A stretch of 43,705 nucleotides of DNA from Candidatus Aenigmatarchaeota archaeon (GTDB lineage Archaea; Aenigmatarchaeota; Aenigmatarchaeia; CG10238-14; SpSt-28): the NCBI GenBank assembly GCA_032249395.1, contig JAVVFY010000006.1, positions 1 through 43,705 of the forward strand, written 5' to 3'. Of this stretch, positions 7,584 to 36,876 are shown piece by piece (position 1 is the stretch's first letter; each line of letters starts with the position of its first letter). The notes beneath the pieces are model-generated. The model did no database searches. It was given only the letters and a program-made list of their open reading frames with translations, and had not been told where the DNA came from. A program made the translations under genes and the position numbers.

Positions 7584-7683
7584 TGGGGCTGCTGGGATTT
7601 GAACCCAGATCAGCTGGTTTCCTCATTTTGTCGGAGCTCCATAGCTGGAGCCAGCCGTCCTAACCTGGTTAGACGACAGCCCC
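7584..7683 (-). tRNA. tRNA-Trp(CCA) with 26-nt intron at 37/38 (7619-7644)
   Basis: Acceptor GGGGCTG/CAGCCCC, anticodon stem GCTGG/CCAGC, CT-CCA-G, T-loop TTCAAAT. Confidence 0.9.
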
Positions 7684-9693: not shown

Positions 9694-9729
9694 TATAGTT
9701 TTTATTGAAAATAAAAATTAAAAAATTGT

Positions 9730-10000
9730 GGGTGACACGCCCTCGGTGGATAGACGTTATCTTACTACTTAATCCAACTAACCCTTCTAAACCCCGTATC
9801 TCTACAGCATTTAGTTATCTCCTTACCCTTGCTGCATTCCTGCCCTGGGGGATTCGGAGATAACTAAACCCATAGAGGCGAGGTTTCATCGTCGGGTAGT
9901 TGGGGTAGTAAGATAACGTCTACCGCCCTCGGGCTTCGGCCCGGCCATTATGGACCGTTTGCCGTGACAGGCGAGGCCCAGCCGCCCGGCCTAGTCACCC
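9730..10000 (-). ncRNA. ffs: Archaeal SRP RNA (7S)
   Basis: GC-rich; paired ends GGGTGAC/GTCACCC; Alu-like 5' GGCCGGGCGG; long helix 5; helix 8 CCAGG-GCA-GGAA-TGC-AGCAAGG. Confidence 0.9.
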
Positions 10001-10075
10001 ACTATTTATATTTTGAATGCATAGAAATATATTTAAATATTTCAACTCACTATAAGTATAGCATAGGTGAAAATA

Positions 10076-11912: not shown

Positions 11913-12040
11913 TGCAGGGGGTGGGATTTGAACCCACGAAGGGACTAACCCAGCAGGTTTCTTCTTAGCACCTAAGCTTCGGCTAATTCTGAGCTTCAGC
12001 TTTTTATCTGCCGCCATCGACCAGGCTAGGCGACCCCTGC
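11913..12040 (-). tRNA. tRNA-Leu (most likely TAG) with introns at 30/31 and 37/38
   Basis: Same D-arm, variable arm and T-arm as the other two Leu tRNAs; removing 30 nt and 12 nt gives an 86-nt tRNA with CT-TAG-GA loop. Confidence 0.8.
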
Positions 12041-21144: not shown

Positions 21145-21268
21145 GCGGGGGTCGCCTAGCCTGGTCGATGGCGGCAGGCTCAAGTAAGGTTTTCTTGAGC
21201 TTTGATTAGATGATGAGAAGAAACCTGCTGGGTTAGTCCCTTCGTGGGTTCAAATCCCACCCCCCGCA
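21145..21268 (+). tRNA. tRNA-Leu(CAA) with 38-nt intron at 37/38 (21185-21222)
   Basis: GCGGGGG/CCCCCGC-A, GCAGG/CCTGC stem, long variable arm; 86 nt after splicing. Confidence 0.9.
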
Positions 21269-36741: not shown

Positions 36742-36876
36742 GCCGGGGTCGCCTAGCCTGGTCGATGGCGGCAGCGCCATTGTCGAAGCTTAAGTGCTGG
36801 CTAGGCACATAAGCTCAGATTAATGAAGAAACCTGCTGGGTTAGTCCCTTCGTGGGTTCAAATCCCACCCCCGGCA
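36742..36876 (+). tRNA. tRNA-Leu(TAA) with introns at 30/31 (36775-36787) and 37/38 (36795-36830)
   Basis: Leu-type arms and A73; removing 13 nt and 36 nt gives an 86-nt tRNA with GCAGG-CTTAAGA-CCTGC. Confidence 0.85.

Follow-up and report, generated by a model that had tools for sequence, protein, structure and literature searches.

The second intron, of 36 nt, in the tRNA-Leu(UAA) gene of an Aenigmatarchaeota archaeon is probably a self-targeting box C/D-type guide with a single kink-loop, which would direct the formation of Um34 and act on the unspliced precursor. The gene is located in a window of 43,705 nucleotides, which forms part of the 0.75-Mb genome (89.5% complete, 32% G+C) of this hot-spring archaeon. 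As judged from sequence comparison, the module is a variant of the guide present in tRNA-Trp introns that has been cut to one kink-loop and that occurs in about ten tRNA species throughout the phylum. We infer that L7Ae binds, that a methyl group is transferred, in which order the events occur and that the guide acts within the same molecule.

The tRNA-Leu(UAA) gene and the module in its second intron

The tRNA-Leu(UAA) gene extends over positions 36742-36876 of the forward strand and contains two introns. It was missed by ARAGORN in default mode and by Rfam at the gathering score, and Rfam at this score also reported no guide family at the locus. The intron mode of ARAGORN mislabelled the same stretch tRNA-Asn(att). 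The in silico excision of both introns causes the program to call an 86-nt tRNA-Leu(taa). The mature anticodon arm, GCAGG CTTAAGA CCTGC, is identical in the single-intron orthologue of genome G025. Intron 1, of 13 nt (CGCCATTGTCGAA), was read from the sequence at positions 36775-36787 of the forward strand, between nt 30 and 31, and its removal restores the stem GCAGG/CCTGC. By reading, it has a bulge-helix-bulge-like motif in which C25 G26 G27 C28 pairs with GTCG and the bulges are AG↓C and AA↓G (arrows, splice sites); in orthologues the corresponding helix strand is GTCG, GCCG or GCTG. Intron 1 was also considered as a second guide, but this was rejected, as its TCGA fits the splice helix instead. 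Intron 2 occupies the canonical 37/38 site at positions 36795-36830 of the forward strand, as derived from the sequence and from ARAGORN after intron removal. The earlier note had assigned 36795-36830 as the intron of this tRNA, and this stretch is indeed the entire 37/38 intron, but the additional 13-nt intron at 30/31 had been overlooked. In contigs of thin cover from two metatranscriptome and two DNA runs, neither intron was spanned by a joint, and the contigs gave no indication of the RNA ends. Elsewhere in the window, an archaeal SRP RNA was identified at 9729-10001 on the reverse strand (Rfam RF01857, 145.8 bits).

The standard archaeal box C/D guide possesses two box pairs, one of them terminal, in which boxes C (RUGAUGA) and D (CUGA) form a kink-turn that is closed by a terminal stem. 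Intron 2 contains, in this order and on the forward strand, an antisense element GCACATAAGCT (36805-36815), a D'-like box CAGA (36816-36819), the trinucleotide TTA (36820-36822), a C'-like box ATGAAGA (36823-36829) and a final A (36830); the string antisense-CAGA-TTA-ATGAAGA-A had been quoted in the earlier note and is present letter for letter at 36805-36830. The D'-like box is CAGA, CTGA or TTGA in orthologues. As in box C/D guides, there is an internal D'/C' kink-loop, CAGA-UUA-AUGAAGA, in which the two boxes provide the tandem G.A/A.G pairs, A.A at 3b.3n and a G-C pair at 4b-4n. The target strand (36787-36797, forward strand) starts with the final base of intron 1, runs through nt 31-37, with U34 at 36791, and ends three bases into intron 2. 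It pairs with the antisense at 10 of 11 positions, the exception being an A36.A mismatch, and the antisense base that is fifth when counted upstream from the D' box (N5, A36811), as placed by a register scan, lies opposite U34, again as in box C/D guides. When the antisense was slid along the precursor, 8 of 9 pairs were formed with N5 opposite nt 34, as compared to 4 in the runner-up register. The hairpin that had been proposed for this intron, GCTTAAGTGC/GCACATAAGC with a single A.A mismatch, is confirmed, and folding of the precursor by minimum free energy (-62.6 kcal/mol, z = -4.4) includes it. The pairing also reaches intron bases, as had been claimed, namely 3 bp into intron 2 as well as the last base of intron 1, and this inclusion of bases from both introns is compatible with a precursor as the substrate.

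The interpretation of this element as a guide module is supported, but the earlier note had overlooked that there is one box pair only, as opposed to two in a standard box C/D RNA. A second box pair (terminal C/D) was searched for in the intron, the exons and the flanks, and none was found. The flanks are unrelated among the nine orthologues in which they are readable, and a candidate for a second kink-turn in the leader or trailer, ATGATAA at 19 nt downstream of the gene, was rejected because it is common to no orthologue. The bare box pattern is poor evidence in an AT-rich genome: NNGA..RTGA was present in 15% of the shuffles of intron 2, and a loose genome-wide scan for the box pattern retrieved 227 matches, as compared to 212 in the reversed genome. 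An uncontrolled loose genome-wide motif scan, with 661 matches that were mostly noise, was dropped as evidence. The box pattern combined with 6 or all 7 of the pairs to nt 31-37, in the register seen here, was present in 0.15% of 20,000 shuffles.

The bulge-helix-bulge splice motif consists of a 4-bp helix that is flanked by 3-nt bulges at both splice sites. The last six bases of intron 2 appear to form the central helix and the 3' bulge of a relaxed version of this motif, which adjoins the anticodon stem. This 3' splice element, GAAG with the bulge AA↓A38 (36825-36831, forward strand), overlaps C' and was delineated from the pattern across 80 single-intron modules. In tRNA-Leu(UAA), GAAG pairs with C32 U33 U34 (3 bp), followed by an A35.G mismatch. 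In the 80 modules, position pair 32:-3 is C-G in 79 cases, 33:-4 is U-A in 72 and U.G in 5, 34:-5 is U-A in 31, U.G in 1, C-G in 5 and C.A in 43, and 35:-6 is A-U in 26, C-G in 12, U-A in 6, U.G in 12 and mismatched in 24, whereas the 3' bulge is AA↓A in 66. The 3' side of intron 2 in tRNA-Leu(UAA) fits a bulge-helix-bulge; past the 5' bulge, no helix could be drawn. Within the antisense helix, the 5' splice site is hidden in an uninterrupted duplex without a bulge. Since the separate conserved tail (GAAG-AA↓A) provides the splice-site helix, the antisense appears not to be needed for cleavage. GAAG corresponds to positions 3-6 of the C' box, so that the guide/kink-loop fold and the splice fold are mutually exclusive and the precursor must switch between them; because of this overlap, part of the C' conservation may stem from splicing. 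This double role of ATGAAGA, as a box and as a strand of the splice-site helix, had been overlooked in the earlier note. In the ordinary archaeal bulge-helix-bulge pairing between anticodon and intron, intron bases likewise pair with nt 32-35; unlike in these cases, this role is filled here by the 3' tail GAAG-AA↓A and not by the D'-adjacent antisense. Two EndA-family frames, both matching the catalytic domain of the tRNA-intron endonuclease, were identified in the genome, at G000:C2:53656-53934 and C3:60241-60486 (225-aa frame; match within 408-aa frame). Their number suggests a heteromeric or multi-unit endonuclease of broad specificity and fits with the many relaxed, non-canonical introns.

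Recurrence, covariation and distribution of the module

As read from the tRNA loci, 20 tRNA genes of the genome contain introns, and in 10 of them the module is present and has N5 facing nt 34, namely, Leu UAA, Leu CAA, Trp CCA, Met CAU, Gln UUG, Glu UUC, Arg UCU, Lys UUU, Ser UGA and Ser CGA. All of these nt-34 targets are C34 or U34, and none is G34. In each of the ten genes, the box pair with a pairable 4n:4b has nt 34 as its best register, tied with a neighbouring register in the Glu and Arg modules, and five further overlapping pattern matches in these genes aim elsewhere. Seven intron-bearing tRNA genes (Tyr GUA, Ile UAU, Arg UCG, Arg GCG, Pro GGG, Glu CUC and Gln CUG) are without the module. 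The sister module in the tRNA-Leu(CAA) gene (21145-21268, forward strand), CTTGAGCT-TTGA-TTAG-ATGATGA, has its antisense at 21194-21201, TTGA at 21202-21205 and ATGATGA at 21210-21216, and the D'+5 base is a G opposite C34 (21181). The change of this base from G in Leu CAA to A in Leu UAA, matching that from C34 to U34, had been claimed earlier for this intron and is confirmed in both genes; it is one case of a widely valid rule. The tRNA-Trp(CCA) gene (7584-7683, reverse strand; C34 at 7648) has a 26-nt intron with the module ATGGAGCT-CCGA-CAAA-ATGAGGA. The tRNA-Leu(UAG) gene (11913-12040, reverse strand) possesses two introns, of 30 nt at 30/31 and of 12 nt at 37/38. In its intron 1, GAAGCT-CAGA is located upstream of the target and has U34 at +5 over 5 bp only, and a C' box is not visible; the intron layout is matched in another genome (G029, L012). 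This intron may represent a degenerate or different form of guide.

In the tRNA set found, which is incomplete as the assembly is 89.5% complete, five of the six U34 tRNAs of two-codon boxes carry the nt-34 module, the exception being Ile UAU, in contrast to one of the eight of four-codon boxes (Ser UGA), and a one-sided Fisher test, worked by hand, gave ~0.016 for this difference. The tRNA-Ile(UAU) gene (G000:C1:83061-83152, reverse strand) was observed to have an 18-nt intron that ends in AAGAA↓A and is devoid of a kink-loop.

There is also a second target position. The genes for tRNA-Thr(UGU) (G000:C1:71188-71287, L042) and tRNA-Cys(GCA) (G000:C1:89844-89947, L043) have kink-loop introns in which N5 lies opposite nt 39 and the antisense pairs across the 3' splice site, with 9 of 9 pairs in the case of Cys(GCA). 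Among the 15 Thr(UGU) orthologues examined, the nt-39 register was found in all 11 that bear a kink-loop, and the other four have introns of 20-22 nt without one. Across genera, the Thr orthologues show compensatory changes, including that of G39 to C39. The Haloferax tRNA-Trp intron is reported, in the available sections of two reviews, to guide both nt 34 and nt 39 (PMC4090602, PMC11408192). A four-box RNA with guides for nt 34 and nt 39 is absent from the module-bearing introns of this genome, each of which has one box pair and one guide, so that nt 39 falls to introns other than those aimed at nt 34.

A first covariance model, based on 8 hand-checked modules, recovered 30 modules from the collected loci. 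Both GA dinucleotides are invariant in the aligned modules, and the target pair 34:N5 is U-A in 16 and C-G in 14 without any mismatch, in agreement with the earlier proposal of covariation at the predicted target. The pair 31:N2 is G-C in 27, C-G in 2 and U-A in 1, 35:N6 shows four pair types and one mismatch, and the box pair 4n:4b is C-G in 13, U-A in 13, U.G in 2 and other in 2. The covariation score amounted to 0.322, as compared to 0.127 for shuffled partners (0 of 500 reached 0.322) and to at most 0.126 for a slid partner column. An independent regular-expression parse of all loci, in which 4n:4b and 3n:3b were left free, yielded 103 different module sequences, of which about five represent artefacts of an alternative register. 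In this set, 34:N5 is C-G in 51, U-A in 50 and other in 2; 4n:4b is U-A in 53, C-G in 39, A-U in 3, U.G/G.U in 4 and mismatched in 4, and is thus pairable in 99 of 103; and 3n:3b is U-A in 49, U.U in 40, U.G in 7, A.A in 3, C-G in 2 and other in 2, although all such counts overstate independence, since the sequences are related and the model sets lean to G31-C32-U33 targets. The variation at 4n:4b and 3n:3b is that expected of the non-canonical stem of a kink-loop.

The tRNA-Leu(UAA) gene, both of its introns and an unchanged antisense are retained in eight genomes of the same genus, and the intron 2 module is also kept in the more distant genomes G023, G025 and G018. Within the genus, the boxes are CAGA/ATGAAGA in three genomes, the source genome among them, CTGA/GTGAAGA or CTGA/ATGAAGA in four and TTGA/ATGATAA in one, and those of the distant genomes are TTGA/ATGAAAG (G023 and G018) and CTGA/ATGAAGA (G025). 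D' and C' of the orthologues change jointly, and these box sets indicate that A.A at 3b.3n in the source genome is a derived variant. CAGA with RTGAAGA, and hence A.A at 3b.3n, arose independently in the Trp intron of G017 (L096).

With a second covariance model and a threshold of E <= 0.01, 37 of 41 relatives proved to contain the module, a single genome having as many as 8; at this threshold it was not found in G024, G027, G030 and G032, which are 88-97% complete. At E <= 0.001, the module is present in 46 of the 151 genomes sampled across the phylum. By family, it was found in 6/6 genomes of f1, 27/32 of f2, 1/1 of f3, 3/10 of f5, 1/1 of f6, 1/1 of f11, 3/12 of f16 and 3/11 of f18, and there were no covariance-model matches at this threshold in 20 other families of the phylum. 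All 60 matches that were fetched, 55 parsed by script and 5 read by eye, are located in tRNA genes (Leu CAA 10, Leu UAA 8, Met 11, Trp 11, Gln UUG 10, Lys UUU 5, Glu UUC 2 and Ser UGA 3), and the same applies to 10 of 10 more from other orders, which belong to the same set of tRNA species. In the three genomes from outside the phylum that were searched, two of Micrarchaeota and one of Altiarchaeales, there was no match at E <= 0.01. An extra intron in the T-arm was observed in module-carrying tRNA-Gln, Leu and Trp genes (L071 of G025 and L147-L149 of G044).

Proposed mechanism and rival explanations

In the proposed mechanism, the antisense at 36805-36815 would pair with nt 31-37 and the flanking intron bases in the precursor, and CAGA and AUGAAGA, with UUA between them, would fold as a kink-loop to which L7Ae binds. 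Nop5-fibrillarin would be recruited, and U34, which lies opposite the fifth position upstream of D', would be 2'-O-methylated to Um34. The precursor would then refold, its GAAG-AA↓A tail pairing with C32-U33-U34 and thereby creating the helix and the bulge of the splice site, and after this refolding both introns would be cut out. Specificity could be achieved via tethering in cis, via two precursors per Nop5 dimer or via a circular intron. Several features speak against this interpretation. The boxes are degenerate, with CAGA and not CUGA, AUGAAGA and not AUGAUGA, and A.A at 3b.3n, and pairing of the antisense is interrupted by an A.A mismatch only two positions away from the target. Furthermore, there is a single box pair only, whereas a one-motif 'hemi' RNA is described, in the accessible part of the report, as having lost site specificity (PMC1635284).

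A rather unlikely alternative is that the guide acts in trans, i.e. that the excised intron, linear or circularised, forms a complex with L7Ae, Nop5 and fibrillarin that methylates other pre-tRNA-Leu(UAA) molecules. In a variant of this mechanism, a Nop5 dimer may link two RNPs with one motif each, which would restore the two-motif geometry that is reportedly needed for specificity in vitro (PMC1635284). Action in trans has been reported for the Haloferax intron guide (PMC4090602, PMC11408192), and the loop between target and antisense has only 2-5 nt in several modules, which would make for a poor cis hairpin. However, the inclusion of three intron 2 bases and the last base of intron 1 in the pairing points to a precursor as substrate, and the cis hairpin lies within the minimum-free-energy fold; both speak against action in trans. 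That there is no methylation at all, and that the antisense hairpin and the L7Ae-bound kink-loop serve only as a folding or splicing device for the anticodon region or the splice sites, appears improbable. Pairing between anticodon and intron is general in archaeal pre-tRNAs, C' overlaps the 3' splice element, and L7Ae binds kink-turns also in RNAs that are not guides, all of which would be compatible with such a device. Nevertheless, the seven intron-bearing tRNA genes without the motif must still be spliced, and the antisense helix buries the 5' splice site while a separate tail makes the splice helix. From a folding device one would also expect neither a constant spacing of five bases to nt 34 or nt 39, which are known methylation sites, nor the restriction to C34 and U34 tRNAs, for which nt 34 is reported as a C/D target elsewhere (PMC7994747, PMC6009581).

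It is highly improbable that the module in tRNA-Leu(UAA) is a chance resemblance or a decaying relic. The frequency of the box pattern alone in intron shuffles and the departures from the consensus, A.A at 3b.3n and the N7 mismatch, would agree with this, but the full module is rare in shuffles (0.15%) and is conserved in all eight orthologues of the genus and in more distant ones. In addition, the combination of CAGA with RTGAAGA was found a second time in the G017 Trp intron, and the genus has kept the additional 4 bp on the far side of the mismatch.

Relation to known guide systems and significance

Fibrillarin, Nop5 and L7Ae are all encoded in the genome, with matches over the curated cut-offs. 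Guides for nt 34 are known from a number of archaea. Pyrococcus is reported to possess four C/D sRNAs with nt 34 as their target, those for tRNA-Leu(CAA), Leu(UAA), Met and Trp, of which, according to the part of that report at hand, the Trp guide is the only intron-borne one (PMC7994747). P. abyssi sR47 was found to methylate C34 of tRNA-Leu(CAA) in vitro (PMC5558902), the targets described for Pyrobaculum sRNAs include C34 of Trp and U34 of Gln (PMC6009581), and Um34 and s2Um34 have been reported in Sulfolobus tRNA-Gln(UUG) and Leu(UAG) (PMC7668247). The free-standing Pyrococcus C/D sRNAs share with the intron module the target nucleotide, the tRNA species and the five-base rule (PMC7994747, PMC5558902), but each of them has a gene of its own, contains two box pairs and works on the tRNA in trans.

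The closest parallels are the guides in the pre-tRNA-Trp introns of Haloferax volcanii and Pyrococcus (sR50). Like these, the module contains an antisense to nt 34 of its own tRNA that follows the five-base rule, and it lies in the 37/38 intron of the targeted tRNA. The Trp intron guide is reported to depend on L7Ae, Nop5 and fibrillarin (PMC7994747, PMC4090602, PMC11408192), the three proteins whose genes are encoded here, and its guide pairing and splice motif are described as mutually exclusive, as is the case in tRNA-Leu(UAA). The differences concern size and range. Pre-tRNA-Trp introns have a median length of 65 nt, full C, D', C' and D boxes and two guides, whereas intron 2 has 36 nt, a single D'/C' pair and one guide, and the module occurs in tRNA-Leu(UAA) and nine further tRNA species of this genome. 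The available sections of reviews from 2014 and 2024 describe intron guides only for tRNA-Trp (PMC4090602, PMC11408192), which is treated as a special case, whereas a much smaller intron guide appears to serve about ten tRNA species phylum-wide. A guide-like RNA outside Trp has been reported for another DPANN archaeon, Nanoarchaeum equitans, in the form of a stable C/D-like RNA that lies within the elongator tRNA-Met intron, with only tRNA-Trp known before, as stated in the part of the paper that is accessible (PMC3491384). It differs from the present module in its 66-nt intron, in the presence of a terminal C and D box and in its occurrence in one tRNA only. The Pyrococcus horikoshii 'hemi' RNA likewise has one kink-turn and one guide; this synthetic one-motif RNA was active in vitro, though without site specificity, and the two-motif architecture was termed absolutely conserved in nature in the portion of the article available (PMC1635284). 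However, the 'hemi' RNA is artificial, whereas the one-motif form described here is natural and has its target tethered in the same precursor. A description of a short one-motif module was not found in the literature searched, with most subscription papers outside our reach.

As a tentative generalisation, for which we would claim somewhat less than even chances, Aenigmatarchaeota may bring about ribose methylation of nt 34 and nt 39 by natural one-motif box C/D guides that reside in the introns of their own targets. If this is true, the precursor would be methylated in cis, or as Nop5-bridged pairs, and would then adopt the splice conformer, so that modification would be hard-wired before splicing, and these guides would constitute a natural exception to the two-motif architecture that is thought to be required for specificity. 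A working module would provide a clear selective reason for the persistence of tRNA introns. It would also imply that a single kink-loop with a tethered target can replace a two-motif guide RNA, and would represent a natural switch between conformations by which modification is made to precede splicing. In any case, the module predicts Um34 and Cm34, as well as Nm39, in an uncultured lineage. The Elp3 model TIGR01211 had no match in the 89.5%-complete assembly, whereas four of four archaeal control genomes scored over the cut-off, and one Ncs6/TtuA-type ATP_bind_3 frame was found at C2:14989-15516. The wobble-uridine chemistry of this lineage may be reduced, and in a genome in which no Elp3 was found, the intron guides would, if the above generalisation holds, be the main means of restricting the U34 tRNAs of two-codon boxes.

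A crude regular expression for four-box C/D sRNAs gave 0 matches in the genome and 0 in the reversed control. Beside the L7Ae gene, at G000:C2:25875 on the reverse strand, a 37-nt candidate sRNA was noticed that consists of ATGATGA, 26 nt and CTGA, is flanked by the complementary stretches TTAAA/TTTAA and has no evident internal box pair. On the rRNA contig G000:C13, at ~1548 and 562 on the reverse strand, CCGA...ATGAGGA and CTGA...ATGATGA follow stretches that are complementary to nearby rRNA, which suggests that they are guides embedded in rRNA introns.
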